Source: Escherichia coli (GTDB taxonomy: Bacteria > Pseudomonadota > Gammaproteobacteria > Enterobacterales > Enterobacteriaceae). Taken from it: a stretch of DNA of 64,000 nucleotides. The stretch is from the NCBI RefSeq assembly GCF_002854065.1, contig NZ_CP024147.1; one strand, given 5' to 3'. The notes under the pieces are model-generated. The model saw only the letters and a program-made list of their open reading frames with translations, did not search any database and was not told where the DNA came from. Positions 40,360 through 56,987 of the stretch are shown one piece after another. The number at the start of each line of letters is the position of its first letter. Positions within the stretch are counted from its first letter, which is position 1. The translations under genes were made by a program, and so were the position numbers.

Positions 40360-40444
40360 GCCGAAGTGGCGAAATCGGTAGACGCAGTTGATTCAAAATC
40401 AACCGTAGAAATACGTGCCGGTTCGAGTCCGGCCTTCGGCACCA
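40360..40444 (+). tRNA. leuX: tRNA-Leu (anticodon CAA)
   Basis: GCCGAAGTGGCGAAATCGGTAGACGCAGTTGATTCAAAATCAACCGTAGAAATACGTGCCGGTTCGAGTCCGGCCTTCGGCACCA: cloverleaf with long variable arm, anticodon loop tTCAAaa, 3' CCA. Confidence 0.95.
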
Positions 40445-40457
40445 TCGGAACATTAAT

Positions 40458-40481
40458 AGACGTCAACGGACGTCTTTTTTT
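40458..40481 (+). terminator. Intrinsic terminator after leuX
   Basis: AGACGTCAACGGACGTCT hairpin followed by T7. Confidence 0.8.
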
Positions 40482-40642
40482 GTGCCTGAAATCCAGTATC
40501 CGCAAGGCTTTCCTCGCTTTTTCACTCAACCTAAGTCAACCTGATTCAATTTACATCAACTTACTGATGCGGGTACAACTGCGGGTATATCGCGGTTCGA
40601 TAATGTTTGTACCCACACAGAACCCTTGAAAGGATACTCATC

Positions 40643-41899
40643 ATGGCTCTGAGTGATGTGAAGGTTCGTTCGGCTAAGCCTGAAGCAAAAGCCTATAAAC
40701 TTACTGATGGTGACGGTTTGGTTTTGCTGGTTCACCCGAATGGCTCAAAATACTGGCGGCTGCGTTATCGTTTTGGCGGTAAGGAGAAGATGCTGGCGCT
40801 TGGGAAATACCCTGAAGTGTCGCTGGCGGATGCCCGGGCACGCCGGGATGAAGCTCGTAAGCTGTTAGCTAATGGCGTCGATCCCAGTGAGAACAAGAAA
40901 GCCGTTAAGGTAGAGCAGGAGCAAGAGGCGATAACGTTTGAATTGGTTGCCAGAGACTGGCACGCCAGCAATCAGAAGTGGTCTGCATCGCATAGAGCTC
41001 GAGTATTGAAAAGCCTCGAAGATAATCTCTTTGCTGCTATCGGTAAGCGGAACATTGCAGAACTGAAAACGCGAGACCTACTTGTACCCATCAAAGCGGT
41101 GGAATCATCCGGGCGACTCGAAGTCGCCGCCCGTTTACAGCAGCGAACTACTGCGATTATGCGCTTTGCCGTTCAGAGCGGCTTAATCGACTATAACCCC
41201 GCACAAGAGATTGCCGGTGCGGTAGCTACGGCGAAAAGACAACATCGTGCTGCTCTGGAACTTAATCGCATTCCTGAATTACTTCACCGCATTGATCACT
41301 ATTCTGGCAGGCCGTTAACTCGACTGGCGGTTGAACTCACTTTGTTGGTTTTCATCCGTTCAAGCGAGCTGCGTTTTGCTCGCTGGTCAGAAGTGGATTT
41401 TGATACTGCCATGTGGACGATTCCAGGGGAGCGTGAACCGCTGGAAGGCGTTAAACATTCTCAGCGTGGTTCAAAGATGCGGACTCCCCATCTTGTTCCT
41501 TTGTCGCGGCAGGCTCTGGCTATTTTGGAAAAGATCAAAAGCATGAATGGGAGCCGTGACCTGATCTTCGTAGGAGATCACGATCCGCGTAAGCCAATGA
41601 GTGAGAATACGCTTAATAAGGCCTTGCGAGTAATGGGCTATGACACGAAAACGGAAGTGTGTGGGCATGGTTTCAGGACGATGGCGTGTAGCTCATTGAT
41701 TGAATCGGGTTTGTGGTCGAGAGATGCGGTGGAAAGGCAGATGAGCCATCAAGAGCGTAGCTCTGTGCGTGCGGCGTATATTCATAAGGCGGAACATTTG
41801 GGAGAACGCAGGTTGATGCTGCAGTGGTGGGCTGATTTTCTTGATGCAAATCGTGAGAAGGCGATGAGTCCATTTGATTTTGCCAAACTTAGGCGGTGA
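40643..41899 (+). CDS. intB: P4-type (IntB-like) tyrosine integrase at the leuX island border
   Basis: About 418-aa ORF with N-terminal DUF4102-like region (KAYKLTDGDGLVLLVHPNGSKYWRLRYRFGGKEK) and C-terminal HGFR/Tyr recombinase motifs; immediately 3' of a tRNA gene. Confidence 0.88.
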   Translation: MALSDVKVRSAKPEAKAYKLTDGDGLVLLVHPNGSKYWRLRYRFGGKEKMLALGKYPEVSLADARARRDEARKLLANGVDPSENKKAVKVEQEQEAITFELVARDWHASNQKWSASHRARVLKSLEDNLFAAIGKRNIAELKTRDLLVPIKAVESSGRLEVAARLQQRTTAIMRFAVQSGLIDYNPAQEIAGAVATAKRQHRAALELNRIPELLHRIDHYSGRPLTRLAVELTLLVFIRSSELRFARWSEVDFDTAMWTIPGEREPLEGVKHSQRGSKMRTPHLVPLSRQALAILEKIKSMNGSRDLIFVGDHDPRKPMSENTLNKALRVMGYDTKTEVCGHGFRTMACSSLIESGLWSRDAVERQMSHQERSSVRAAYIHKAEHLGERRLMLQWWADFLDANREKAMSPFDFAKLRR

Positions 41900-42229
41900 T
41901 TAATTGCGGTTTCTCCCACATTATGCGGAGGGGGACGATGTATTGGTTAAAGCGGTCCATCCGAAGGAGACCAGTAGTGCCAGCAGTAATGCTGTTACTG
42001 CTGGTTAATGACATGCTTTTTTTTGTCTATTTTTCAATCTGCGTTATGTCTCTCGGAGGTAACTCTGTGTTAAATATTGATAGGGCTAGTTTGCACAATG
42101 AAGAACCGAACAAAGTATTGATTTAACATTAGTATTTACTTAGCTGTTCTGACCGGTTTCTGCGATACAATGCTACCAAGTATGTAACTAATTCTAAGCA
42201 AAGGTGCTTTATAATCGAGAGGCGATTGA

Positions 42230-45200
42230 ATGGATGCTTTAAGGGCTACAACATCGACAAATTTCAGTTTTCTCGCTGAACATGACCCGCTGTTTCTACA
42301 AATCGCCACTGCTGCAGAAAACGCCTTCTCAGGCGATCCCAACACCACCTTGATTAAGTTGCGCCAACTAGGTGAAGCCTTAGCACAACATATTGCTGCG
42401 CTGGTCGGGATCACGTTTGATGAACCGCCCACTCAGGCTGATTTACTCTACCGCCTCAATCGCGAGCTAAAATTTGAACCCACGGTACTCGAGCTATTTC
42501 ATCTATTGCGGATAGAGGGCAACAAGGCCACTCACCAGTTCAAAACCAAGCACAAAGAGGCGCTAGATGGCTTAAAAGTGGCGCGAGCGCTAGCTATCTG
42601 GTTCCACCAATCTTTCGGCAAGCAGGGCGCGGCCTTTAAACCCGGCGCTTTTATTGCTCCTCCAGACCCGAGCAATCAGCTTAGGCAACTCCAAACGGAA
42701 ATCGATCGCCTCAAAAGTGAGCTCACTACCGCCAACATACAGCTAGATTCCAGCCAACAGCTGCAAAATTTGCTGGTGCAGGAAAAGAGTGAATATGAAG
42801 CGCTGGCGTTAGCCATGGATGATGAAACTAAGGTGTTAGCATCGCAGGCGAAAGAGCAGGAAATTGCACTCGAACAGCTTCGACAGCAATACGAAGAAAA
42901 ATTAAAAATCCTGCAAGCGCAACTGACCGAAAAAGATGAAAAGCAGGCCCGAACACAACGGCGAGAGTTTGCCCAGAAGAGCCGCCGTGCCAGCCAACAT
43001 ATCGCGTTAAATGAAGAACTCACCCGTATATTGATTGACCAAAACTTAAATGATGCGGGCTGGCTTGCTGACAGTCAGGAACTGACCTGGGCTAACGGAA
43101 CTCGCCCTGAAAAGGGGATAAACAAAGCCATTGCCGAATGGCCTACGGAGTATCAGGGTAAAAAAGGTCGCGCTGATTACGTTCTATTTTGCGGCTTAAC
43201 TCCGCTGGCCACGGTCGAAGCCAAAAAAGAAAACACCGATGTTGCGGGAAAAATTCCGCAGGCAGAACGCTACAGCAAAGGCTTCAAAATCACGTCCCCC
43301 ATGATTGGCGCATGGGAGCGGGAAGGCCGAACCATTGCATGGGCGGATGAGACTGACGGGCATTATATTATCCCGTTTGTATACTCCTGCAACGGTCGCC
43401 CCTACGTGCCACAGTTGGCTGAGTCATCAGGAACTTGGTTCCGGGACGTGCGCGAACCGTCCAACATCCGCCGTGCGCTGCAAAAGTTTCATACCCCGCA
43501 AGGCTTGCTGGATAAACTCGAACGCAGCAAAGACAGCGCCGAACAGAAGCTAAAGCAAGAAGGCTTCGCTTACCTCCGGTTACGCGATTATCAGCAAAAG
43601 GCCATTCTCGCCGTTGAAAGCACATTGGCGCAAAACATCCGCAATGCCCTTCTGGCGATGGCGACCGGCACCGGGAAAACACGCACCATTGTTGGTCTAA
43701 TGTACCGTTTTCTGAAAACTGAACGCTTCAAGCGCATCCTCTTTCTGGTTGACCGTACGGCTTTGGGCGAGCAAGCCACGGACACCTTCAAAGAAGCGCC
43801 GTTGGAGCAAAACCAGACGCTGTCTCAGATTTACAATATCGCTGAGCTCGGCGATATGGCTACACAGGCAGAAACCCGAGTACAGGTCGCGACGGTACAG
43901 GCCATGGTTAGCCGCATTTTTTCCTCGGACACACCACCGCCGGTGGATGAATTTGACTGCATCATCGTTGATGAAGCCCACCGAGGCTACACCTTAGATC
44001 AGGAAATGACTGAAGGGGAACTCTCGACCCGCGACGCCAGCCAATATCTCTCCAGCTACCGTCGGGTGCTCGATTATTTCGACGCGGTAAAAATCGGCCT
44101 TACCGCCACTCCGGCGAAACATACCAGCGATATCTTCGGCAAACCGATTTACATCTACTCCTACCGTGAAGCCGTGGCGGATGATTGGCTTATCGATCAT
44201 GAACCTCCAATCCGTTATGAAACGCTGCTGACGCAAAATGGCATCCACTTTGACAAAGGGAGCCAGGTGCATGCCATTAATATCCACACCGGAGAGGTTG
44301 AGATTGATCAGCTAGAAGACGAAGTGGATTTCAACGTTGATGCATTTAACCGTGGCGTCATCAGTGAAAACTTTAATCGGGTTATTTGCCAACAGCTCGT
44401 GAAAGAGCTCGATCCCTTTGGCGAAGAGAAAACGCTGGTTTTCTGCGTTACAGACAAACATGCCGACATGGTCAAACGCTTGCTGGATGAAGCGTTCTCT
44501 GCTGAATATGAAAACTATAATCAAGCGGCCGTCGAGAAAATCACCGGTGAAAGTGACAAAGTCAAACAGTTGATCAAACAGTATAAAAATGAACGCTATC
44601 CGAATATTGCAATCACCGTTGATTTGCTTAGCACCGGCATTGACGTGCCGAAGATTTGTAATCTGGTTTTCATGCGTCGGGTGAAGTCACGTATTTTATT
44701 TGAACAGATGATAGGCCGCGCAACACGCCGCTGTGATGACATTGGCAAAACGGTCTTCCGTATTTACGATCCAGTAGATATTTATGAGGCTCTCAGTGAC
44801 GTTAACACCATGAAACCGCTGGTCAAAGACCCCAATATCACACTTGAACAATTGGTCGGCGAGCTAACCGATACTGAACAGCTCGAAAAAGCGCTCAACA
44901 GCCCCGGTGAACATACAGGTGAAACTCAGGCTGATGTGGTGCTCAGCCAGTTAAGCCAAAAGGTGATGCGCATCCTACGTAAGGCGGAGAAACGGGCAGA
45001 AAATCGCCCAGTGGTGAAACAAAAATTGGCTGACCTCCATCAACTGTGGGGCGTTGAGCCAAAACAGCTGCATCAACATCTGCATCACTTAGGGCCGCGT
45101 CAGGCGGCAGCCTTCATCCAACAACAGCAAGGGCTAATCTGCCAGCTCAACGAGATAGCTACATTACTCGGAAGTGAATACCGGCCGATTATTTCTGAGC

Positions 45201-45754
45201 ATCATGACCAACTACAGGAACGTAACCAGAGCTACGGTAGCCATCAGCGGCCAGAAGATTACCTGGAAAGCTTTGCGGATTTTATTCAGCAGCAGCTTAA
45301 CCAATCCACTGCGCTGGCCGTGGTTGTCAACAAACCCCGCGACCTCACTCGTGAACAGCTTAAAGAGATCCGCTTATTATTAGACGGTGCGGGCTATTCC
45401 GAAGCTAATCTACAAACCGCCGTGCGTAATCAAACCAATCAGGATATCGCCGCCAGCATTGTCGGCCACATTCGCCGTGCTGCACTAGGGGAGCCTCTTG
45501 TGCCTTTTGCACAGCGCGTATCACAGGCAATGATCAACATTTATAACAGCCGCGCATGGACAACCCAGCAACGAAAATGGCTGGATCGTCTGGCAAAACA
45601 GCTGGTTCATGAAGTGATCATTGATCACCAATTTATTAACAATAGTTTTGCTGATGATGGCGGCGTAAAACAGCTCAATAAGATATTGGTAGACCAACTG
45701 GACAGCGTGCTGGATGAACTTAACGGTGCGATATGGCCACAACAAAGCGCCTGA
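42230..45754 (+). CDS. hsdR: Type I restriction enzyme R subunit (nuclease/helicase)
   Basis: 1174-aa ORF; PD-(D/E)xK-type motif (RADYVLF...VEAKK), SF2 helicase motif I (AMATGTGKT) and motif II (IIVDEAHRG); N-terminal coiled-coil segment. Confidence 0.9.
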   Translation: MDALRATTSTNFSFLAEHDPLFLQIATAAENAFSGDPNTTLIKLRQLGEALAQHIAALVGITFDEPPTQADLLYRLNRELKFEPTVLELFHLLRIEGNKATHQFKTKHKEALDGLKVARALAIWFHQSFGKQGAAFKPGAFIAPPDPSNQLRQLQTEIDRLKSELTTANIQLDSSQQLQNLLVQEKSEYEALALAMDDETKVLASQAKEQEIALEQLRQQYEEKLKILQAQLTEKDEKQARTQRREFAQKSRRASQHIALNEELTRILIDQNLNDAGWLADSQELTWANGTRPEKGINKAIAEWPTEYQGKKGRADYVLFCGLTPLATVEAKKENTDVAGKIPQAERYSKGFKITSPMIGAWEREGRTIAWADETDGHYIIPFVYSCNGRPYVPQLAESSGTWFRDVREPSNIRRALQKFHTPQGLLDKLERSKDSAEQKLKQEGFAYLRLRDYQQKAILAVESTLAQNIRNALLAMATGTGKTRTIVGLMYRFLKTERFKRILFLVDRTALGEQATDTFKEAPLEQNQTLSQIYNIAELGDMATQAETRVQVATVQAMVSRIFSSDTPPPVDEFDCIIVDEAHRGYTLDQEMTEGELSTRDASQYLSSYRRVLDYFDAVKIGLTATPAKHTSDIFGKPIYIYSYREAVADDWLIDHEPPIRYETLLTQNGIHFDKGSQVHAINIHTGEVEIDQLEDEVDFNVDAFNRGVISENFNRVICQQLVKELDPFGEEKTLVFCVTDKHADMVKRLLDEAFSAEYENYNQAAVEKITGESDKVKQLIKQYKNERYPNIAITVDLLSTGIDVPKICNLVFMRRVKSRILFEQMIGRATRRCDDIGKTVFRIYDPVDIYEALSDVNTMKPLVKDPNITLEQLVGELTDTEQLEKALNSPGEHTGETQADVVLSQLSQKVMRILRKAEKRAENRPVVKQKLADLHQLWGVEPKQLHQHLHHLGPRQAAAFIQQQQGLICQLNEIATLLGSEYRPIISEHHDQLQERNQSYGSHQRPEDYLESFADFIQQQLNQSTALAVVVNKPRDLTREQLKEIRLLLDGAGYSEANLQTAVRNQTNQDIAASIVGHIRRAALGEPLVPFAQRVSQAMINIYNSRAWTTQQRKWLDRLAKQLVHEVIIDHQFINNSFADDGGVKQLNKILVDQLDSVLDELNGAIWPQQSA

Positions 45755-45833
45755 TTCTGGTAAAATTCGCTAGCGAAACACGCCTTTTTAATCGCGCTTG
45801 CGGCATATTTCGCGAGCGAATGCAGGAAAAATA

Positions 45834-47402
45834 ATGAGTAATAATAACGATATCGTACAAAAACTGTGGAACCTGTGTGATGTACTGCGTGATGACGGCA
45901 TCAACTACAGCGATTACGTCACCGAACTAGTGCTACTACTGTTTATCAAAATGGTGCATGAAAATACCGAAGCAGAATTATTAGATCAGCACACTTTACC
46001 GCAGGGCTGCCGCTGGAGCGATCTCAACAGTTTATCGGGCCTCAACTTGCTTAACCATTACAAACAAATGCTGTTGAAGCTCTCCAGCGGCAAAGACGCT
46101 GAAGGTAATTCGGTTCATGCTGACCCGCTGATTAGCGCCATTTATGACGATGCGCAGACCCGCCTGCGTGAGCCTCGTCATCTCGAACAGATGATCCGCA
46201 CCCTCGACCAAATTGACTGGTTTAGTGCTAAAAAAGACGGTCTCGGTGATCTTTATGAAGGTCTGCTGGAGAAAAACGCCGGAGAAACAAAATCTGGCGC
46301 AGGTCAATATTTTACGCCGCGGGCCTTAATTAACAGCATGGTACGCTGCATTAAGCCACAGGCTGGAGAAGTGATCCAAGATCCCGCTGCGGGCACCGCA
46401 GGGTTTTTGATTGCCGCCGATCAATACATCAAGCAACAAACTGACAACCTCTACGACCTTACTGCCAAAGCGAGAACCTTTCAAAAAAATAAAGCCTTTA
46501 TTGGTGTGGAACTGGTTCCGTCTACGCGCCGCCTGGCACTGATGAACTGCCTGCTACACGGCATCGAAGGGGATGACGAAGGCGTCGTGCATCAGGGCAA
46601 CGCGTTGGGCATGGTGGGTGCTAGCTTGCCCAAGGCCGATATCATTCTTGCTAACCCGCCGTTCGGTACGGCGAAAGGCGGTGAAGCCAGCATTACTCGT
46701 GATGACTTAACCTACCCAACTAGTAACAAACAGCTAGCGTTTTTACAGCATATCTACCGTAACTTAAAACCGGGTGGCCGTGCAGCTGTGGTGCTACCCG
46801 ACAACGTCCTGTTTGAAGCGGGTGTTGGCACCGATGTACGCCGCGACCTTATGAACAAATGTAACCTGCACACCATTTTACGTTTACCCACCGGGATTTT
46901 TTACGCCCAAGGGGTGAAAACCAACGTTTTGTTCTTCACCAAAGGCAGCGCCAACAACAAACATCAGGATGAAAATTGTACCGAAAACGTCTGGATCTAT
47001 GATCTGCGTAGTAACATGCCAAGCTTTGGCAAACGCACCCCGTTTGGTGAGCAACATTTAAAACCCTTTGAAGCGGTTTACGGCGACGATGCCAACGGTC
47101 AAAGCCCACGCAGTGAAGGGGAATGGAGTTTTAACTCCGACAAACTTGACGTGCCCGATAACGCCGAAAATCAGCACGTTGACAACCGCATGGCGACCAG
47201 CCGTTGGCGCACATTCAGCCGTGAATGGATCCGCGATGTTAAAGGTGATTCATTAGATATTGCATGGCTGAAAGATAACAACAGCGTTGATGTGACTAAC
47301 CTGCCTGAACCTAGTGTATTAGCGATTGAAGCAAAAGAAGAATTAACCACTGCTTTAGCAGAACTGGATGCTTTATTGACTTTATTAGGAGCAACTCGCT
47401 GA
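45834..47402 (+). CDS. hsdM: Type I restriction-modification N6-adenine DNA methyltransferase subunit
   Basis: N-terminal HsdM_N-like sequence (DIVQKLWNLCDVLRDDG), motif I DPAAGTAGFL, catalytic NPPF; start at the ATG with AGGA RBS. Confidence 0.9.
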   Translation: MSNNNDIVQKLWNLCDVLRDDGINYSDYVTELVLLLFIKMVHENTEAELLDQHTLPQGCRWSDLNSLSGLNLLNHYKQMLLKLSSGKDAEGNSVHADPLISAIYDDAQTRLREPRHLEQMIRTLDQIDWFSAKKDGLGDLYEGLLEKNAGETKSGAGQYFTPRALINSMVRCIKPQAGEVIQDPAAGTAGFLIAADQYIKQQTDNLYDLTAKARTFQKNKAFIGVELVPSTRRLALMNCLLHGIEGDDEGVVHQGNALGMVGASLPKADIILANPPFGTAKGGEASITRDDLTYPTSNKQLAFLQHIYRNLKPGGRAAVVLPDNVLFEAGVGTDVRRDLMNKCNLHTILRLPTGIFYAQGVKTNVLFFTKGSANNKHQDENCTENVWIYDLRSNMPSFGKRTPFGEQHLKPFEAVYGDDANGQSPRSEGEWSFNSDKLDVPDNAENQHVDNRMATSRWRTFSREWIRDVKGDSLDIAWLKDNNSVDVTNLPEPSVLAIEAKEELTTALAELDALLTLLGATR

Positions 47403-48778
47403 TGAGTAAGATTATTCTACCTGAAGGGTGGTCCAATTGTACTCTTGCAGATATTGCTGAAGTTAACCCTAAAAAAATAGAGGCTGAACCTGACATAATT
47501 GCAGGCTTTGTTCCTATGTCTCATGCCCCAACAAACTATTACGGGAAATTAGAGTTTGAAGAAAAGACTTGGGGTGAAATTGGTAAATCTTACACTAACT
47601 TTAAAAATGATGATGTGATTTTTGCAAAAGTAACGCCTTGTTTTGAAAATGGTAAAGCAGCAATTGTAAAAGATATGCCAAATAATATCGGTGCAGGCAG
47701 CTCTGAATTTTATGTTCTACGCGCTCGTAATCAAGAGATACCAGCCAGTTATTTACTTGGGATTATTAAGACCAGAAAATTTATGCAGGAAGGTGCAGAA
47801 AATATGACAGGTGCTGTTGGTCTGCGCCGTGTTCCAAGGGCTTTCGTTGAAAGCTTTCCTTTGATACTTCCCCCTCTTGCAGAACATAAAATCATCGCCG
47901 ATAAACTCGATATTCTGTTAGCACAGGTCGAAAGCGCCAAAGCACGCCTTGAGCAAATACCACAAATCCTGAAGCGTTTTCGTCAAGCGGTGTTGGCATC
48001 TGCGGTGAGTGGAAAATTAATACCAAAGGATCAAAAGTCCAATGTACGATTTGATGTCTCAGTTGGTTCACTTTGTATAACTTCGTTTGATGGCCCTTTT
48101 GGGTCAAAATTAAAAACGGCTGATTATACAAATGCGGGTGTTCGTGTCGCTCGACTAGAAAATATTGGTCATTTAACATTTAATGATGAAAAAGAAACGT
48201 ATATCAGCGATACAAAATTTAATAGCCTAAAAGGAAATAAGCTCGAAAAGGATGATGTGTTATTCTCATCATTTGTAGATGAAGATGTTCGTGTATGTCT
48301 TTTTCCACATAACGATAAAATTTTTATAAACAAGGCAGATTGTTTTTGTTTAAGGATCAATCAAGAAATAGCATCACCAAAATATGTAGCTTTAACATTA
48401 GCAAGCAGAACTTCGTATGAACAAATTAAAGCACAGGTTCAAGGTGTAACACGACCTCGTATTAATTTAAAGACGTTAAGGTCTTTGTCGTTTACGTTTC
48501 CTTCTCTACAAGAACAAAACGAAATTGTTCGCCGCGTAGAACAACTCTTCGCCTATGCTGATGGCATCGAAAAGCAGGTACACAACGCCCTTGAGTGCGT
48601 CAACAACCTCACACAGTCGATTCTGGCTAAAGCATTTCGTGGGGAACTCACGGCGCAATGGCGTGCAGAAAATCCCGATTTAATTAGTGGTGAAAATAGC
48701 GCACAAGCATTACTGGTGAAAATTCAACAGCAGCGCAAAAACATAAAAAATATCAAACGCAACAAGGGTAATAATTGA
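47402..48778 (+). CDS. hsdS: Type I restriction-modification specificity subunit
   Basis: 458-aa ORF, start overlaps the hsdM stop (TGATG); two target-recognition-domain halves separated by conserved helical spacers. Confidence 0.85.
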   Translation: MSKIILPEGWSNCTLADIAEVNPKKIEAEPDIIAGFVPMSHAPTNYYGKLEFEEKTWGEIGKSYTNFKNDDVIFAKVTPCFENGKAAIVKDMPNNIGAGSSEFYVLRARNQEIPASYLLGIIKTRKFMQEGAENMTGAVGLRRVPRAFVESFPLILPPLAEHKIIADKLDILLAQVESAKARLEQIPQILKRFRQAVLASAVSGKLIPKDQKSNVRFDVSVGSLCITSFDGPFGSKLKTADYTNAGVRVARLENIGHLTFNDEKETYISDTKFNSLKGNKLEKDDVLFSSFVDEDVRVCLFPHNDKIFINKADCFCLRINQEIASPKYVALTLASRTSYEQIKAQVQGVTRPRINLKTLRSLSFTFPSLQEQNEIVRRVEQLFAYADGIEKQVHNALECVNNLTQSILAKAFRGELTAQWRAENPDLISGENSAQALLVKIQQQRKNIKNIKRNKGNN

Positions 48779-50481
48779 TGCGACTGATTTCTTTAGATTT
48801 GAGAGGCAGCTACAAAGGCTTGAAAGATCAATTCTTTGACTTCAGTTATGCCCAAGATAATATAATTGCATTGATTGGCCTTAATGGTTCTGGTAAATCT
48901 CAATTGCTTGAGTTAATCGGAGAAACTTTTGCTTATCTAGAGCGATGGCAACGTGCAGAGTTCAAAAATAAAACATCGTTAGGTTTTAGCGTCGCGGTAC
49001 ACTATCAATGGGATCTTAGAAATGATAGTGCTGTTATATCTTACCCAGACGAGCTCATGAATCATGGTGAGAGCATTGAGCTAAAGGTAACTATTGAGCT
49101 TGACGGCGATGTGTTTTTAAATGTTCGTGGTACTTATGAGTGGCATGTAATACAGCTTGGTGAGCGCCATTTCCCCATCCCTCTCGTGGTTGGTTATGCT
49201 TCGGGGCTAAACGAAAATTTACAGCGAAGTTTTATGAAAAATGCTGTGCAATATTTTGAAGTCCGTCGAATTAGTAGCCAGCGTCTAAAAATGCTATCAC
49301 GAGAAATTAATGATGAACAGTTGGCTGAAATCAATAAGAAGTATCTTAAAAAATACCCACACATATTTGATCCTTTATCAGAAGGTGATTTTTTTCCAAA
49401 TTATCACCTGAATTTGAGAGAAGTGAATCCTGCCCCTAGCAATTTTAACTATCTTGATTACGATAATATTGGGCTCTTAATTTTATCGCTATCGATTCTT
49501 CCGGCTGGGACAGTATTTCAACTATTAGATGAAATAACATATAAACATCCTGTCAAAGCTGTACTTCATTACGACTTTCGTTCTGGCATCATAGAAGATG
49601 ATGCCATTCGTGATGTGAAAATGTTGATCCGTATAGCAGGCTCCGATCAAGTAAGGCCAACAGGAGGCCGAACTACAGATAACCAGTATGAACTTTATGA
49701 GTTAGAATATCTGTCTGGAGAAATCACTCTCGAATTAAGTGATGAGGCTGTTTTAAACCGACTTCGTGAAGATAACTACTTTGATTCTTTCGCATTATTT
49801 AAAAGACTTAATAATATTCAACAGCTTGGCATAAAGAACTGGGATCGTACATCTCGTTTGAAATTGATGAAAGATGATTTTATAGGTACGGTAAAAAAAC
49901 CGCTTCAGTCAAGGTTACCTTTATCTGTTGTTGAGTTATTAATGGCTAATGAACAGGGCGATACCGTGAAGTTTGATGATTTATCTGACGGTGAAGCTCA
50001 ATTGATTCAGGTTGTTGCCGCAACAAGGATATTCAGTCAGGTTCAAGCGCTATTTCTTTTTGATGAGCCAGAAACACACCTTAATCCGTCTTGGCGTACC
50101 TATTTTCATCAGCGTTTAACTGAAGCATTTACACCTGGAAATGAGAGGAAAGGTCAATCGCAATTCTTTCTATCTACTCACTCACCATTCATGATTTCCT
50201 CGCTCAAACGCGAGAATGTATTTTTCTTCGAGCGTAGTGATATGGGTTGTATCAGTATGGAACCGGTGTCCAGCCAGACTTATGGCACATCATTTGATGT
50301 CTTGGTTAAGAACCACTACGGTCTGCGTTCCCTTATTTCACAGACAGTGGTGAAGGATGTTAAAAATCGATTACCAGAAGATAATAATCCTGAAGCAGTT
50401 ATAGCTGCGCGACTCTGGATTGAGGAAAATCTGGGAGAATCAATGGAAAAGGCTTATCTGCTAAGGAAACTAGATAGCTAA
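48778..50481 (+). CDS. ABC/SMC-like P-loop ATPase (AAA_15/AAA_21-like), candidate defence ATPase (Septu PtuA-like)
   Basis: Walker A GLNGSGKS near the N-terminus; signature-like LSDGEAQL, Walker B LFLFDEPETHLNP and H-loop STHSP near the C-terminus; start overlaps the hsdS stop. Confidence 0.7.
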   Translation: MRLISLDLRGSYKGLKDQFFDFSYAQDNIIALIGLNGSGKSQLLELIGETFAYLERWQRAEFKNKTSLGFSVAVHYQWDLRNDSAVISYPDELMNHGESIELKVTIELDGDVFLNVRGTYEWHVIQLGERHFPIPLVVGYASGLNENLQRSFMKNAVQYFEVRRISSQRLKMLSREINDEQLAEINKKYLKKYPHIFDPLSEGDFFPNYHLNLREVNPAPSNFNYLDYDNIGLLILSLSILPAGTVFQLLDEITYKHPVKAVLHYDFRSGIIEDDAIRDVKMLIRIAGSDQVRPTGGRTTDNQYELYELEYLSGEITLELSDEAVLNRLREDNYFDSFALFKRLNNIQQLGIKNWDRTSRLKLMKDDFIGTVKKPLQSRLPLSVVELLMANEQGDTVKFDDLSDGEAQLIQVVAATRIFSQVQALFLFDEPETHLNPSWRTYFHQRLTEAFTPGNERKGQSQFFLSTHSPFMISSLKRENVFFFERSDMGCISMEPVSSQTYGTSFDVLVKNHYGLRSLISQTVVKDVKNRLPEDNNPEAVIAARLWIEENLGESMEKAYLLRKLDS

Positions 50482-51647
50482 TGTTATTTTCACTTAATCC
50501 ACAGACGCCTCAATGTTCGGTATTTGCATTTCTTAATGCTGAATTTCTTCATTTTTTGCAAGCTACTATTAATGCTGATGTATTCTCAGAAAACTTATTC
50601 CGCACTTTTCCTGAGATGATTGAAGATACAGAAGTACTTGTCCCTAGTGTATGTTGGAGTAATGAGCCCACAAGAGAGAAATTTCTTGGGTTATGGGAAG
50701 CGCGGCCTACGACCGTTGCGCAGCGACGGGAGTTGTCAGACCAAATAAGTCAGGCTCAGGATATTAATGTATTTTTCAACAATACCCAAGCTGTATTGCC
50801 GCAATTAGTACCAGCCTCTTTATTCGAAGCATGTAAGGCGTTAACAACTCATTTGTTTACACGTACCAAAGATCTAGCTCAAGCAAAGTCACAATCCAAT
50901 AGTTCTATTGAAAAACATTATCAGAATTTCGTCAGAGAAAATAATAATAGCCATCTATGTCCTATTTGTGGCACTGCACTTCTCTCTCAAAATCGAGAAA
51001 GCGTAGCAGAGGAAGAACAATGGCGATCAGATTATGACCACATTCTTTGCAAAGATAAATATCCAGTTTACAGTGTCCATCCAGGAAACTTCATTCCGAC
51101 TTGCCATATTTGTAATAGTAAAGCTAAAGGGGCAAGGGACTTACTGAATACTGTTGGTCTCCAGAGACGATTAGCATTTTATCCACTTCCCCCATCACAA
51201 GAGTCATGTGAGCAATTTGTTGTGGTATCGCTTCACCTCAGTGACCGTAGAGATTTAATTGTGAATAGTTGGGAAACACCGTTGGAGTCAGCATCCATTT
51301 TATTCCCCAGAGCTCCAGCTGACATAGTAGATAAAATAGGTGTATGGAAAGAAGTTTATAAAGTACCAGAAAGAGTTGAACAGCATCTTAAGGTCAACTT
51401 TTGCGAGCGTATAGCCGCTGATCTACGACCAGTAAGCTTTGATGATTTCTGTGAGCAATTACATAGATATTCGAGACAAATGCCAGCAGACTATAGAAAA
51501 TCGGAATGGAGGTTTTGGTGGCAGAAAGTCTATGAATTCTTATCAGATCAAAATAGAGACTATTTACACGATGTGTGGATATTAATTGCCTGGAAATTAA
51601 GGTTATCAAATGATGCTGATATGGCTGATACGTTTAATCAAATTTAA
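50481..51647 (+). CDS. HNH-endonuclease-domain protein, partner of the upstream ATPase (Septu PtuB-like)
   Basis: Central motif CPICG...DYDHILCKDKYP...NFIPTCHICNSKAKG (CxxC...DH...N...CxxCN); start overlaps the ATPase stop (TAATG). Confidence 0.65.
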   Translation: MLFSLNPQTPQCSVFAFLNAEFLHFLQATINADVFSENLFRTFPEMIEDTEVLVPSVCWSNEPTREKFLGLWEARPTTVAQRRELSDQISQAQDINVFFNNTQAVLPQLVPASLFEACKALTTHLFTRTKDLAQAKSQSNSSIEKHYQNFVRENNNSHLCPICGTALLSQNRESVAEEEQWRSDYDHILCKDKYPVYSVHPGNFIPTCHICNSKAKGARDLLNTVGLQRRLAFYPLPPSQESCEQFVVVSLHLSDRRDLIVNSWETPLESASILFPRAPADIVDKIGVWKEVYKVPERVEQHLKVNFCERIAADLRPVSFDDFCEQLHRYSRQMPADYRKSEWRFWWQKVYEFLSDQNRDYLHDVWILIAWKLRLSNDADMADTFNQI

Positions 51648-51661
51648 ATTTTACTTCAACA

Positions 51662-51691
51662 GGGTGAGAGTATTGTTACTCTCCCTTTTTA
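51662..51691. terminator. Hairpin plus T-run between convergent HNH gene and nuclease-motif gene
   Basis: GGGTGAGAGTAttgtTACTCTCCC followed by TTTTT; overlaps the last codons of the minus-strand gene. Confidence 0.5.
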
Positions 51692-52848
51692 AAATACATT
51701 GTAGAAGGTGCGCTTATTACTACGCAACCATCAATGCCTTTTATCTTCAATACCCCTTCCTTGAATTTAACATGTTCTTGTGTTGCTCGAGTGCAGTCCC
51801 ACAGGAAGCTGATGATATACGAATCCTTATATTTTTCGTCGACACGATAAAGTGACGCATCTTCTGCAATTTCTCCTATTAGTGCAGGAAACGATTTTTT
51901 TGTATCTTTTCGGTATTTTACTTCAATAATTGTGTGCAGTGATGGCAGATAAAGGTCTATGCGGGGGTTTTTTTGTCCGACAGGCTGAAGATTCACCTCA
52001 TCTGCAATATCGTTGAATATTGGCGCAAGTAGGATATAAAGCAGATTCTGAACATGATATTCATTTTCAACTTGCCACTTTACGGGCTCTGCGCCTCTGG
52101 TTCGACCTGAGTCCTCCCATGTCCATCGTTTTAACCCTGCAGGGATATGTTCCAGAAATCCTAGCAGGTCATCCAGTGTCCATCCAGACGGTGGAGCAAT
52201 GGCAATTTCCTGATTAATTTGATTAAAAACGTAAAGCATTACACACAAGAGAGTAACTGAAGGATTTTCTGTAGCTTGTGCTTGAAATTCGCTCATGAAA
52301 CGTCCGACAAGAGAAAGTCGGTTCTGATGACTATTGATCTTCAATAACTTTCGATAATGAAGGAAGAGTGGTATGCAGGCACTACTAAAGGAGGCTGATT
52401 CGCTGTTACCGACATATGCCGCGATATCTTTCTCGAAGATACTTAGATGGTTGCTTTCAATTTGCTGAGCCAGAAACCCTGAAATCCACTTTTCGAACTC
52501 GTGATTTATGCTCTCATCTTGCATCTGTGCCGTTAGCCATTTCACTGCCATTACACCGAACATATCCGATACCCAAGGTCTCGGTGTTGAATCAATCTTG
52601 GGAGCTTGTCCGAGCAGGCGAGAGACATCCTGGACCGAGACAGTTTCATCTAGAATACCTAAACCTGAAATTGCACAGCGTTGGTATAAAGATAGGTCCG
52701 CAAAGCTAAAATTCGTAATGCAGCTTTTATCTCCTTCCAGGAGACTAAAAAAGCAGGACTTAAATGGATCAATGTGAGCGGATTCGATCACCTTACTGTG
52801 AAAATAGTCGCGTAGCTGATAAACGTTTTCTTTCTCTATAGGAACCAT
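51676..52848 (-). CDS. Predicted PD-(D/E)xK-motif nuclease, candidate effector partner of the upstream Argonaute
   Basis: 390-aa ORF; C-terminal motif ...RIDLYLPSLHTIIEVKY (D-x(n)-E-x-K) preceded by a helix with conserved Glu; start overlaps the pAgo stop by 13 nt. Confidence 0.55.
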   Translation of the reverse strand: MVPIEKENVYQLRDYFHSKVIESAHIDPFKSCFFSLLEGDKSCITNFSFADLSLYQRCAISGLGILDETVSVQDVSRLLGQAPKIDSTPRPWVSDMFGVMAVKWLTAQMQDESINHEFEKWISGFLAQQIESNHLSIFEKDIAAYVGNSESASFSSACIPLFLHYRKLLKINSHQNRLSLVGRFMSEFQAQATENPSVTLLCVMLYVFNQINQEIAIAPPSGWTLDDLLGFLEHIPAGLKRWTWEDSGRTRGAEPVKWQVENEYHVQNLLYILLAPIFNDIADEVNLQPVGQKNPRIDLYLPSLHTIIEVKYRKDTKKSFPALIGEIAEDASLYRVDEKYKDSYIISFLWDCTRATQEHVKFKEGVLKIKGIDGCVVISAPSTMYFKKGE

Positions 52849-53175
52849 TGTGAATGCCCTATTTTTCCAATCATGACTGAGTCACTCCAGCCCGGAAGCT
52901 GATTCAACCATCCTAAATTATGGGCGATAAGATCGGAATAAGTGATGGTAACTGGCATGGGATTGGGGAAGTAACTACGCCAGGAGTGTGATGCGAAACT
53001 GTAGAGCTGAGCACTCAAATACTTAATATCTTTGAAGGTCGAGTCTTTATGAACGTTGACGATCACACCACGTGGATGACCGTCCGTTTCTTGTCGTAAT
53101 TCACGTTGGCCGATCAGGTAAACAAGCATTTCGTTTTTAGAAAGCTTAAACGTATTTCCGCGATGTGTCGCCAGG

Positions 53176-53180
53176 CGTCC
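53176..53180. repeat. IS2 target-site duplication, left copy (CGTCC)
   Basis: Identical 5 bp directly flanking both IS2 ends. Confidence 0.85.
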
Positions 53181-53271
53181 TAGACTGGCCCCCTGAATCT
53201 CCAGACAACCAATATCACTTAAATAAGTGATAGTCTTAATACTAGTTTTTAGACTAGTCATTGGAGAACAG

Positions 53272-53637
53272 ATGATTGATGTCTTAGGGCCGGAGAAACG
53301 CAGACGGCGTACCACACAGGAAAAGATCGCAATTGTTCAGCAGAGCTTTGAACCGGGGATGACGGTCTCCCTCGTTGCCCGGCAACATGGTGTAGCAGCC
53401 AGCCAGTTATTTCTCTGGCGTAAGCAATACCAGGAAGGAAGTCTTACTGCTGTCGCCGCCGGAGAACAGGTTGTTCCTGCCTCTGAACTTGCTGCCGCCA
53501 TGAAGCAGATTAAAGAACTCCAGCGCCTGCTCGGCAAGAAAACGATGGAAAATGAACTCCTCAAAGAAGCCGTTGAATATGGACGGGCAAAAAAGTGGAT
53601 AGCGCACGCGCCCTTATTGCCCGGGGATGGGGAGTAA
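53272..53637 (+). CDS. insC: IS2 OrfA (InsC, HTH protein)
   Basis: 121-aa sequence [26 protein letters not shown]... recognised as IS2 InsC. Confidence 0.9.
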
Positions 53638-54500
53638 GCTTAGTCAGCCGTTGTCTCCGGGTGTCGCGTGCGCAGTTGCACGTCATTCTCAGACGAACCG
53701 ATGACTGGATGGATGGCCGCCGCAGTCGTCACACTGATGATACGGATGTGCTTCTCCGTATACACCATGTTATCGGAGAGCTGCCCACGTATGGTTATCG
53801 TCGGGTATGGGCGCTGCTTCGCAGACAGGCAGAACTTGATGGTATGCCTGCGATCAATGCCAAACGTGTTTACCGGATCATGCGCCAGAATGCGCTGTTG
53901 CTTGAGCGAAAACCTGCTGTACCGCCATCGAAACGGGCACATACAGGCAGAGTGGCCGTGAAAGAAAGCAATCAGCGATGGTGCTCTGACGGGTTCGAGT
54001 TCTGCTGTGATAACGGAGAGAGACTGCGTGTCACGTTCGCGCTGGACTGCTGTGATCGTGAGGCACTGCACTGGGCGGTCACTACCGGCGGCTTCAACAG
54101 TGAAACAGTACAGGACGTCATGCTGGGAGCGGTGGAACGCCGCTTCGGCAACGATCTTCCGTCGTCTCCAGTGGAGTGGCTGACGGATAATGGTTCATGC
54201 TACCGGGCTAATGAAACACGCCAGTTCGCCCGGATGTTGGGACTTGAACCGAAGAACACGGCGGTGCGGAGTCCGGAGAGTAACGGAATAGCAGAGAGCT
54301 TCGTGAAAACGATAAAGCGTGACTACATCAGTATCATGCCCAAACCAGACGGGTTAACGGCAGCAAAGAACCTTGCAGAGGCGTTCGAGCATTATAACGA
54401 ATGGCATCCGCATAGTGCGCTGGGTTATCGCTCGCCACGGGAATATCTGCGGCAGCGGGCTTGTAATGGGTTAAGTGATAACAGATGTCTGGAAATATAG
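53595..54500 (+). CDS. insD: IS2 OrfB (InsD, DDE transposase; expressed as an OrfAB fusion by -1 frameshift)
   Basis: 301-aa ORF overlapping insC in the -1 frame; DDE integrase-core-like sequence. Confidence 0.9.
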
Positions 54501-54511
54501 GGGCAAATCCA

Positions 54512-54516
54512 CGTCC
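54512..54516. repeat. IS2 target-site duplication, right copy (CGTCC)
   Basis: Identical 5 bp directly flanking both IS2 ends. Confidence 0.85.
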
Positions 54517-56987
54517 TTTCGACATAGTCGCCGTTGAAGAGTCGAACATGTGGAGTCCGTGATTCTCTGAGATTTTTACGAAGGCATACTCGATCTGATA
54601 ATCTCTATACTTGTCGATTACCGCACGGACTGCCTGAATCTCTTCCTTATTGAACTTTTTGACTTGTACATGGAAAATTAAGCGAATCGTATCGCCTTTC
54701 TGCCAGTTCATTCGCCTTTGTATTTTTTCTATATTCTCGGCCAGAACAGAGGTTAGAGCGTCGCAGTAAGCTTCCGGTACAACGGCTTTGGACGTACTCG
54801 AGACAATGTAACTACCGTCTCCCGAAAATACGGTGGTGATTCCCATAATGCGCTGATTATGGGCACCACGCTCTTGGACTATATTTGCACTGCCAATACC
54901 GATCACGAGTTCATGGGATAGTGTTGGCGATGATTTGAGTAGCCACGGGACTCCACCCATCTTCGCATAGCAGGCCAGTGACATGTTATTAAGCGAGTAG
55001 CCGAGTGAATAATCAGACTGCGTTAGCAGCTCTATTGTGAAATCCTGTACAGGAACTTGGTGCAAGTAAAATAGGCTTTTACCAAGATAGTAAGGATTAT
55101 CAGCAACTTTGAGTTTTTTAAATGACTGCCGCACCTGTACGAGGGCCAGATCCCAACGTCCTCCTTCATCAGCTTTTTTGCGTATTGCAGCTTCGATGGC
55201 ATTTTTGTATGCATCGACGCTGTCTGTGGATGTTTCGAACACTTCAACACGACTGGTTCCAAGTGCAAATTTACCCTCAAGGCCATTTCTGAAATATTTG
55301 CTATTAGCAATGCCTTTCAGAAGCTTACGGACGAACTGCTCGACTCGCCCTTTGTCATGTTGGGCGCAGATCACGCAGATTGATGGATCGTTCCTATCGA
55401 AGGTACGCTTTGTATAGGGGCCATTTTGTGTAAGACCCTTCTCAGTCCAATCTGCTTCACCGTTATCGTTGAAGACGAACACCGGCTTTTGCATCTGTGC
55501 ACAATCTTTTTGAATATCGGATGGATCCTCAATTTCGATACGCGTTCCATCGAGCAGCGAGATGTTTGTCGCTTGGATATACTTCTTAAGGGCGTCGATG
55601 CGGTCTTTTTTATTCTCGCCTCCGTTGAAAATGGAAACGGACTGCCGAATATGTTCGACAATGGAGTCTTTCTTCGTACCATGCGTATGAAGGATGTAGT
55701 CGTCAAAATTAGCTCGACTAGCTTCGAGATAAACGTCTTTAGCCTCAGCATGAACTGCTTGGCCGTCGGGACGAATGACACTCAGAGTTCTCCCTTCGTG
55801 GCAGCTTTCTACAAACCCTAAAAGTTTTCTAAATCCGTCGTCCTGCTCGGTGACGACGTAGCGACCAATAACATTGAATCCGGTTTTTAGGAAAAACAGG
55901 CAGTTCTCTTTTACTACACGACGTGTTGAGCAATCAATTATAAGACACGGCTGACCTTGGACAGTACGAGTGTCGATTGAATACTTGGCACAAATTTTTA
56001 AGGGATAAGCCTCACCAAGAATTGAGGCTAAAAGATTGTCTTTTGGTTTGGCACTTACCACCTCGATAGGATTGAAGCCGCAAGGAGTTCGACCCAATCC
56101 AGCGAAGTGCTTGAGCAGACCATCTTTAACCAGAGAGCAAAAGGTTCCCAAATTATCCTTTAGTTGCAGTGTCTGCGGTGTACCAGGTTTGGGGAACGTA
56201 CCATCACTCGAAAAAATCTGAATATTGTCACCCTGACGCCGGAAGACGTGCGTCACTTTATGGGAGGAGCGGAGGCTATCTAGAGTCGTCTTGTCGTAGG
56301 GGATCTGGACAAATTTCAACTCCAATTCAGGGATTTTCAGTGGAAACGCATTCAGGACAATCGGCAAGACCCACCCCTTTTGTGTTAGTGAAAAATCCAA
56401 CATACTGCGTCTCGATAATTATTCCCAGTCAGGGATGTGCTGGCACCTGACTGGCGCTCGCTGTGGGTTCCCTCCATCCGACTCTGGAAATAACTGTTTC
56501 AACAATTAATTTTCCTACACTGTAGCGTAAATTTTCTTAAGGCTCCCAAAGCGATTATTTAACTCTTTAAACTAATCTAATGTAAAGACTAGGGAAATGA
56601 TACGAGTGTAGTCTATGTCTTCGCTGTGATGAGGATCTATTCTTCGGTGTACATAGGGGTACTTAAGTTCCGATATAACACTCAACCAGCCTAAATTACA
56701 TCTGCAGGATCTCATGATTAAAATGATCTATGTGGTAGGTCATTAAATGGAGTAACCGGTCTCTCATAGGCAGGCGTAAGCCACCCCTGAGGGGCAGACA
56801 GATGCCATGCAGTTGAATGGTTTAAAGGGTTTGAGAGGGTGATAGTGCTGCGGTTGTCACACTATAGAGTTCTGGCGTAAAAACAGTCAGGCATCTCGGC
56901 ATTTATCAACTCGTCCAACGCTCCTCTGAAATTTGCGGGATCGGTTTAGTTTCAGGTGGGGGCGCTGAGGCCCCCGATTTATCGTAC

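Follow-up and report, generated by a model that had tools for sequence, protein, structure and literature searches.

Background

The closest described relative of the locus considered here is the BPAN abortive-infection system of Escherichia coli, in which a long-B prokaryotic Argonaute (pAgo), EcAgo, is paired with a co-encoded nuclease, bAgaN. EcAgo does not cleave DNA in vitro. It uses 5'-phosphorylated RNA guides, senses single-stranded DNA (ssDNA) and activates the bAgaN DNase, whereupon the genome is degraded and infection is aborted (Song et al. 2023, Nat Commun 14:6970, PMC10620215). Cells tolerate bAgaN alone, and its activity was abolished by mutation of residues D298, E309 and K311 (PMC10620215). 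According to the published work on the intact allele, EcAgo takes up small 5'-phosphorylated RNAs from the transcriptome and base-pairs them with the ssDNA of an invader without cutting it. This switches on the PD-(D/E)XK DNase of bAgaN, leading to degradation of cellular DNA and the killing of the infected cell. How such proteins hold their guides is known from a second long-B pAgo, RsAgo: the carboxylate of its L777 is needed for binding of the 5'-phosphorylated guide, and deletion of this residue weakens affinity 42-fold and produces a 9.3-fold silencing defect (PMC4919518). A structure of the EcAgo/EcbAgaN complex has been deposited (PDB 23wq); our literature search found no publication describing this entry or a structure of BPAN.

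Here, we examine a related locus in a window of 64,000 nucleotides from E. coli (RefSeq assembly GCF_002854065.1, contig NZ_CP024147.1; position 1 is the first letter of the window). Judged by its sequence, the interval 52836-55200 carries the MID and PIWI portion of EcAgo, and the locus is very probably a defunct copy of the published system. The reading as a whole—an EcAgo pseudogene broken by an IS2 element, a BPAN system inactive in this strain, and an orphaned bAgaN gene—is one that we hold with high confidence.

Identity of the Argonaute gene

The gene lies on the minus strand, in two pieces. The 5' fragment (54517..56403) comprises codons 1-629, encoding the N, L1, PAZ*, L2 and MID regions and the first two-thirds or so of PIWI. 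The 3' fragment (52836..53180), cut off from the remainder, comprises codons 630-743 and the stop. The preliminary description took 52836-55200 for a continuous Piwi-coding stretch, and missed that positions 53181-54511 are a complete IS2 of 1331 bp. When this element and one copy of its target duplication are excised, an open reading frame of 743 aa is restored without interruption. Its product is identical to the ‘EcAgo’ of PDB 23wq at 728 of 731 positions (E=0), and the exact 743-aa sequence is present on 355 public contigs. An alternative TTG start at codon 13 (56365..56367, minus strand), with AAAAGGGGTGGG before it, matches Met1 of the 731-aa EcAgo used in published work and for PDB 23wq.

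The protein also matches, far beyond chance, the PADLOC pAgo_II profile (E=9.6e-293), RsAgo (E~1e-70, residues 163-743) and the Pfam Piwi domain (E=5.4e-11, residues 444-718); the PADLOC, RsAgo and PDB EcAgo matches place it, by its MID-PIWI sequence, in the long-B clade. The one-polypeptide N-L1-PAZ*-L2-MID-PIWI architecture is absent from the gene as it stands, which is split at codon ~629-631, and is present in full in the reconstructed reading frame, where a global hhalign alignment to TtAgo covers residues 1-743 and the PDB match residues 13-743. Its initial classification as a non-slicing pAgo of the long-B type, encoded together with its effector, was thus right, the pair being essentially the published EcAgo/EcbAgaN (PDB 23wq; Song et al. 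2023, PMC10620215). Family, dead active site, guide and target preferences, effector, and abortive-infection outcome are all published already for a protein that is 99.6% identical.

The IS2 insertion

The element (53181..54511, plus strand) has the features typical of IS2, a member of the IS3 family: a length of about 1.3 kb, imperfect terminal inverted repeats that include a 33-nt pair with 79% complementarity, overlapping tnpA and tnpB genes, and a 5-bp target-site duplication. The TnpA (53227-53637) and TnpB (53595-54500) reading frames are both antisense to the Argonaute gene, and match the NCBIfam IS2 models at 275.8 bits (cut-off 229) and 727.6 bits (cut-off 597), respectively. The duplication, CGTCC, adjoins the element at its left end (53176..53180) and again at its right end (54512..54516). 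Annotated IS2 copies match the element at 99.6-99.9% identity. It has transposed into the PIWI-coding region of this genome and left the CGTCC duplication behind.

Of 5426 complete E. coli genomes, one, that of VTB96935v, has an uninterrupted and essentially identical (99.9-100%) allele; the locus there is collinear with our sequence at 99.87-99.98% and differs solely in having no IS2. An IS2 at this PIWI site was not found in the same 5426 genomes or in the exact-protein index, and none of the complete E. coli genomes was found to cover 80% or more of the disrupted locus.

IS2 interrupts the Piwi domain some 629-631 codons into the gene. Reading in from the 5' side, the Argonaute frame continues into the element and ends at 54334, giving a chimeric product of 689 aa, of which a look-up by exact sequence returned no record. 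This product is without the last ~112-114 residues, among them D712 (52932-52934) and the C-terminal Leu743 (52839-52841), which are encoded in the 3' fragment. The corresponding 114 codons lie behind 1.3 kb of antisense IS2, and the sole start that they have of their own is a GTG inside the element, which opens a reading frame of 159 aa. With the reading frame stopping in IS2-derived sequence, the protein would lack the leucine whose counterpart in the close homologue RsAgo helps, through its carboxylate, to bind the guide 5' end. From this truncation, and by analogy with RsAgo, we infer that the gene is a pseudogene and BPAN inactive. RNA-guided sensing of ssDNA, and with it collateral DNA degradation and cell death, is expected to have been lost here because IS2 disrupts the Argonaute gene. 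The proposal that the protein is a guide-dependent sensor acting through an effector accords with what is published for intact EcAgo, but does not carry over to this copy, in which the Piwi domain is interrupted.

Active site and guide-binding pocket

The peptide strings on which the preliminary description relied are all real and fall in one minus-strand reading frame: KMGGVPW (residues 481-487; 54943-54963), LVIGIGSAN (residues 499-507; 54883-54909) and IRLIFHVQV (residues 573-581; 54661-54687). We mapped the catalytic tetrad by hhalign, with a profile of 113 long-B sequences set against a TtAgo-family profile (probability 92.7-97.7%); the mapping is based on sequence profiles, not on structure. 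TtAgo D478 aligns with G504 (54892-54894; G529 in RsAgo), E512 with E544 (54772..54774), D546 with H578 (54670-54672), and D660 with D712. E544 stands at the position of the glutamate finger, in a loop where the mapping is less certain. Among the 113 long-B representatives, the first column is glycine in 105 and the third is histidine in all.

The PIWI domain, then, has no canonical DEDX tetrad, and ‘missing DEDX’ is stated more exactly as G-E-H-D (G504/E544/H578/D712). In the numbering of the 731-aa form, these residues would be G492, E532, H566 and D700. Loss of both metal-binding aspartates is confirmed by the profile alignment, with acidity retained at the glutamate and the fourth position. 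The earlier proposal of a glycine in place of the first aspartate, and of no aspartate at the RDG position, is borne out by the alignment to TtAgo; its broader wording, that the catalytic residues are lacking, holds for positions 1 and 3 but not for E544 and D712. Alignment of the long-B profile to the single hAgo2 sequence has a probability of 35.8%. It moves the register by two residues at positions 1 and 3 of the tetrad, and likewise places no acidic residue at either. It disagrees with the TtAgo alignment on the assignment of E544 as the glutamate finger. As a control, the TtAgo family was aligned to hAgo2; the probability is lower still, at 1.9%, yet the known D546/D669 are paired correctly. 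Because the hAgo2 alignments are weak, we relied on the TtAgo-family profile.

The 5'-phosphate pocket of the MID domain (54961..55092, minus strand) consists of Y438 (55090-92), K442 (55078-80), Q453 (55045-47) and K481 (54961-63). These residues align with Y463, K467, Q478 and K506 of RsAgo, each is kept in at least 108 of the 113 representatives, and the pocket is an intact one of the canonical YK type (Y-K-Q-K). Mapping of the four catalytic positions and of this pocket, which had been put forward as the check on a dead active site, thus finds neither Asp nor Glu at two of the four positions, and the pocket preserved.

The effector gene and other lesions of the operon

bAgaN (51676..52848, minus strand) encodes a PD-(D/E)XK DNase effector of 390 aa and overlaps the Argonaute stop by 13 nt. 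The protein matches ‘EcbAgaN’ of PDB 23wq (E=1.9e-260) and the PADLOC Aga_Helical-REase profile (E=3.7e-132), and its D-EVK nuclease motif (D298, E309 and K311) is intact. The arrangement is that of an operon, with the pAgo gene directly upstream of a PD-(D/E)XK (RecB-like, og_15) nuclease gene. The locus belongs to a leuX island and has type I R-M genes as neighbours. Expression of the orphaned gene is probably low. A scan of 51500-57200 for promoters and terminators returned seven promoter-like sites, not above chance (8.4 expected by shuffling), and found no outward promoter at the left end of IS2.

Other E. coli assemblies carry an IS3 element in bAgaN, followed by deletion of the Argonaute gene: a second, independent insertion-sequence hit on the operon, and a small data point for the view that abortive-infection systems, being costly, are easily lost. 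In Klebsiella, a 291-aa form of bAgaN is called on 92 contigs. We considered this as a frameshifted gene and rejected it; the 390-aa frame is complete in the DNA, and the shorter form is a short gene call. The Klebsiella locus has a single indel, positioned upstream of the Argonaute gene.

It is conceivable, though doubtful, that the IS2 insertion is a selected escape from self-killing by BPAN, for example after the gain of a high-copy trigger replicon of the CloDF13 type. Insertion sequences would then be disabling the operon recurrently across E. coli lineages, IS2 in the Argonaute gene here and IS3 in bAgaN elsewhere, and the orphaned bAgaN might keep a residual role.

Alternative explanations

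Could the broken gene keep partial function? The two fragments might reassemble as a split Argonaute, the 689-aa product might serve as a guide-binding decoy, or IS2 might drive the orphaned bAgaN. Split long-B pAgos do occur naturally, as in fAfAgo, a split AfAgo heterodimer (PMC10954474); one piece of the gene here still codes for N, PAZ, MID and the greater part of PIWI, and cells tolerate bAgaN by itself. The break, however, falls within the RNase-H fold of PIWI rather than at a domain boundary, and the large fragment is without the C-terminal carboxylate needed for 5'-phosphate binding. Promoter-like sites at chance level, with none directed outward from the left end of IS2, also speak against it, and plain decay fits the finding that other E. 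coli strains have a different insertion sequence in this operon. We consider partial function very unlikely.

More improbable still is that this strain has an intact locus working as a guide-dependent sensor. The window does encode all of the sensor residues and has an undamaged effector gene, but IS2 and its target duplication split the reading frame within PIWI and leave the C-terminal 114 codons 1.3 kb away, with a GTG in the element as their only start. Nor do we give much credence to the insertion having arisen in assembly, by the collapse or misjoining of a repeat within the Argonaute gene. IS2 is present in E. coli in multiple copies (a median of four places per genome), and repeats are frequent sites of misassembly. 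A misjoin, however, would not produce a target-site duplication. Here the element has both of its ends and a length of exactly 1331 bp, it is flanked by a perfect 5-bp direct duplication, and its excision restores the protein found on the 355 contigs. An active slicer, with the catalytic residues simply misaligned, can be dismissed almost outright: acidic residues do stand at tetrad positions 2 and 4, as E544 and D712, but segments 499-507 and 573-581 offer none in either of the two registers, the glycine and histidine columns are conserved across the 113 long-B representatives, and EcAgo showed no cleavage in the experiments of Song et al. (2023).

We return, then, to the IS2-broken EcAgo gene, and the locus is better annotated as an IS2-disrupted EcBPAN pseudogene than as a working sensor. 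Beyond annotation, its importance is small, the structure of the complex being already deposited.

Comparison with known systems

The locus differs in nothing notable from known examples as regards its insertion sequence; size, TnpA and TnpB, 5-bp duplication and identity are all typical of IS2. The short pAgo abortive-infection systems SPARDA, SPARTA and SPARSA share with EcAgo a catalytically dead PIWI domain, RNA-guided DNA sensing, and cell killing by a collateral effector. EcAgo differs from them in being full length, and in working with an effector that is a protein of its own and did not bind stably in pull-downs (PMC10620215).

RsAgo, the long-B pAgo of Rhodobacter sphaeroides (PDB 5AWH, 6D8A-6D9L), is closer. 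It has the same glycine and histidine at tetrad positions 1 and 3—replacements that the main text of the RsAgo structure paper does not list—together with the YKQK pocket in MID and a C-terminus ending in WFL. The two proteins are ~35% identical; the fourth tetrad position is Glu in RsAgo and Asp here, and RsAgo R754, which contacts the 5' base of the guide, aligns with W720. EcAgo acts through bAgaN, whereas RsAgo is not characterized here as part of an Argonaute–nuclease pair.

Closest of all is EcBPAN itself (Song et al. 2023; PDB 23wq). The two share the operon order, a stop that overlaps the start of the next gene, the choice between a 743-aa and a 731-aa start, and the dead tetrad. The Argonaute here departs from the PDB sequence at three residues (I404M, E416D and N638K), while bAgaN, with its D-EVK motif, is ~97% identical to EcbAgaN and carries ~11 substitutions. 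What sets this copy apart is the IS2 element that interrupts its Argonaute gene.

An Argonaute gene interrupted by IS2

The interval 52836-55200, which the preliminary description took for a Piwi-coding stretch, is not continuous: a complete IS2 element of 1331 bp (53181-54511), absent from that description, lies inside it, antisense to the Argonaute (Ago) gene. The Ago-like reading frame occupies the minus strand as two listed ORFs, of 689 aa (56403-54334) and 159 aa (53315-52836), between which the plus strand carries overlapping ORFs (53227-53637 and 53595-54500). Reading of the DNA and a repeat scan delimit the element; the scan found its terminal inverted repeats to be imperfect, and the 5-bp sequence CGTCC is perfectly duplicated, in direct orientation, on either side (53176-53180 and 54512-54516). 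NCBIfam names IS2 TnpA (275.8 bits; cut-off 229) and IS2 TnpB (727.6 bits; cut-off 597), and annotated IS2 copies in thousands of E. coli records match the element at 99.6-99.9% DNA identity.

Taking out IS2 and one copy of CGTCC yields a single uninterrupted ORF of 743 codons (56403 to 52836); 1331 bp of the interval are therefore IS2, and the Piwi domain (Pfam match to residues 444-718, E=5.4e-11) is split after about codon 629-631. The start candidates, also on the minus strand (region 56365-56403), are an ATG at 56403 (743 aa) and a TTG at 56367 (731 aa). The latter is preceded by a strong Shine-Dalgarno-like AAAAGGGGTGGG, and the 731-aa form is the one used in published work (PMC10620215) and in the PDB entry. 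The IS2-disrupted allele has no record in the indices searched (complete E. coli genomes and an exact-protein index).

Identity of the pair

The reconstructed Ago matches chain f, ‘EcAgo’, of PDB 23wq across all 731 chain residues, with three substitutions, and the exact 743-aa protein occurs on 355 public contigs, as ‘MULTISPECIES: Piwi domain-containing protein [Enterobacterales]’. Downstream, overlapping the Ago stop by 13 nt, lies the 390-aa ORF of the effector nuclease bAgaN (52848-51676, minus strand), which matches ‘EcbAgaN’ of 23wq at E=1.9e-260 and keeps D298, E309 and K311. In that entry EcAgo and EcbAgaN are present in eight chains apiece; a literature search found no publication on it. 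PADLOC assigns the Ago to pAgo_II (9.6e-293) and its neighbor to Aga_Helical-REase (3.7e-132), and RsAgo, a reference long-B pAgo, aligns to Ago residues 163-743 at E~1e-70. All sequence-level features of membership are present save an intact Ago ORF and, judged by sequence, the pair is the EcBPAN system proper, more than a functional analogue. The earlier reading of a long-B, non-slicing sensor with a co-encoded effector thus holds for family and mechanism, but the gene is broken here.

The catalytic positions

From motifs aligned by eye, the Piwi domain had been said to lack the catalytic DEDX residues. For the present mapping, a profile of 113 full-length long-B representatives, each at most 55% identical to EcAgo, was aligned with hhalign to a profile of the TtAgo family (probability 97.7% global, 92.7% local). 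The TtAgo query was checked to be 100% identical to PDB 3dlb, and the hAgo2 query 100% identical to 9w5i_D. TtAgo D478, E512, D546 and D660 fall on EcAgo G504, E544, H578 and D712 (743-aa numbering; minus 12 for the 731-aa form), and so not all four positions carry Asp or Glu. Since both Asp columns are non-acidic, the alignment by eye was correct for these two: the quoted motifs are real, LVIGIGSAN carrying Gly (G504) in place of the first Asp and IRLIFHVQV, with H578, having none. Positions 2 and 4 remain acidic. On these alignments, the accurate statement of the tetrad is G-E-H-D instead of D-E-D-X.

Among the 113 representatives, position 1 (G504; 54892-54894) is Gly in 105, position 2 is Glu or Asp in 83, position 3 (H578; 54670-54672) is His in every one, and position 4 is variable (E 31, D 22, N 15, Q 12, others). 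An alignment to hAgo2 as a single sequence, which is weaker (E=3.8e-4), gives the same position 4 (H807 to D712) and, with a two-residue register shift at positions 1 and 3, still places no acidic residue there; neither Ago segment 499-507 nor segment 573-581 has any Asp or Glu. The mapping is consistent with the finding of Song et al. that EcAgo cleaves no DNA, with or without guide and target (PMC10620215). Strict conservation of His and Gly at the ‘dead’ positions 3 and 1 suggests a retained, non-catalytic role.

The intact system and the disrupted one

EcAgo prefers 5'-P RNA guides, drawn broadly from the transcriptome, and binds complementary ssDNA, not RNA, without cleaving it (PMC10620215). 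This ternary complex stimulates the bAgaN DNase, a dimeric PD-(D/E)XK enzyme that depends on Mn2+; in cells, genomic DNA is degraded and carriers of a CloDF13-origin plasmid are killed (abortive infection), an effect abolished by D298A or E309A/K311A in bAgaN, which by itself is not toxic (PMC10620215).

In this genome, the product of the disrupted gene would keep native sequence as far as about R631 and then continue with 58 residues encoded by IS2; D712, the C-terminal Leu and the final third of the PIWI fold would be missing. Judging from RsAgo lacking L777 and from simple considerations of fold integrity, this product is expected neither to load guides properly nor to signal. The antisense IS2 now separates bAgaN from the upstream region of the operon, and a promoter scan (51500-57200) found no replacement promoter for bAgaN above chance. 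Because bAgaN alone is not toxic, the orphan copy can persist.

The island and its relatives

The BPAN operon is within a defence island integrated into the E. coli chromosome backbone at tRNA-Leu(CAA) (leuX; 40360-44). The left part of the island (40360-48778) carries an integrase (40607-41899) and a type I R-M system (hsdR 42230-45754, hsdM 45798-47402, hsdS 47402-48778). Between hsdS and bAgaN, on the plus strand, lie an AAA ATPase (568 aa) and an HNH-like protein (388 aa; together 48775-51647). The ATPase matches TIGR04435, ‘restriction system-associated AAA ATPase’ (7.2e-50, below cut-off), and PADLOC PtuA (5e-44); the HNH-like protein matches PADLOC PDC-M62B, PDC-M01B and PtuB. These matches suggest a Septu-like or type-I-R-M-associated module, which also adjoins BPAN in Klebsiella. 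At 48-52 kb G+C falls to 0.38-0.40, the backbone being at about 0.50. The gene immediately upstream of Ago (about 56988-57380, minus strand) is annotated in a near-identical RefSeq locus as a VOC-family pseudogene containing an internal stop, and a yjhP-like methyltransferase ORF (57807-58871, minus strand) is 354 aa here versus 248 aa as annotated there.

The genome of strain VTB96935v (NZ_CP178662.1), alone among 5426 complete E. coli genomes, has this island free of IS2, collinear with 39600-64000 at 99.87-99.98% identity; RefSeq there names an ‘argonaute/piwi family protein’ and a ‘PD-(D/E)XK nuclease domain-containing protein’. Klebsiella contigs have the same gene order, with the operon intact. 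E. coli GCA_900449205.1 carries a different element, a 1259-bp IS3 (4699-5957 of that locus), inside bAgaN near codon 81, and CP024667.1 and at least 14 contigs like it lack Ago and the 5' end of bAgaN, the deletion adjoining that IS3. With IS2 in Ago and a separate IS3 in bAgaN, at least two independent insertion-sequence events have inactivated the operon in E. coli. It strikes us as improbable that such disruptions were selected as an escape from the self-toxicity of BPAN.

Comparison with RsAgo and EcBPAN

The MID pocket for the guide 5' end, whose mapping had been proposed as a check, is present: in the pairwise alignment (E~1e-70), EcAgo Y438, K442, Q453 and K481, each kept in at least 108 of the 113 long-B representatives, correspond to RsAgo Y463, K467, Q478 and K506, which hydrogen-bond the guide 5'-phosphate in the crystal structure (PMC4919518). 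The C-terminal residues are ...WFL in both proteins. L777, the last residue of RsAgo, coordinates through its carboxylate the Mg2+ ion bridging guide phosphates 1 and 3; when L777 is deleted, affinity for 5'-P RNA falls 42-fold and plasmid silencing falls 9.3-fold (PMC4919518). [quoted passage not shown] Since the dead tetrad, the effector link and the mechanism have all been published for EcBPAN, the finding is already known; the IS2-disrupted allele, an ordinary pseudogenisation, is its sole new element.
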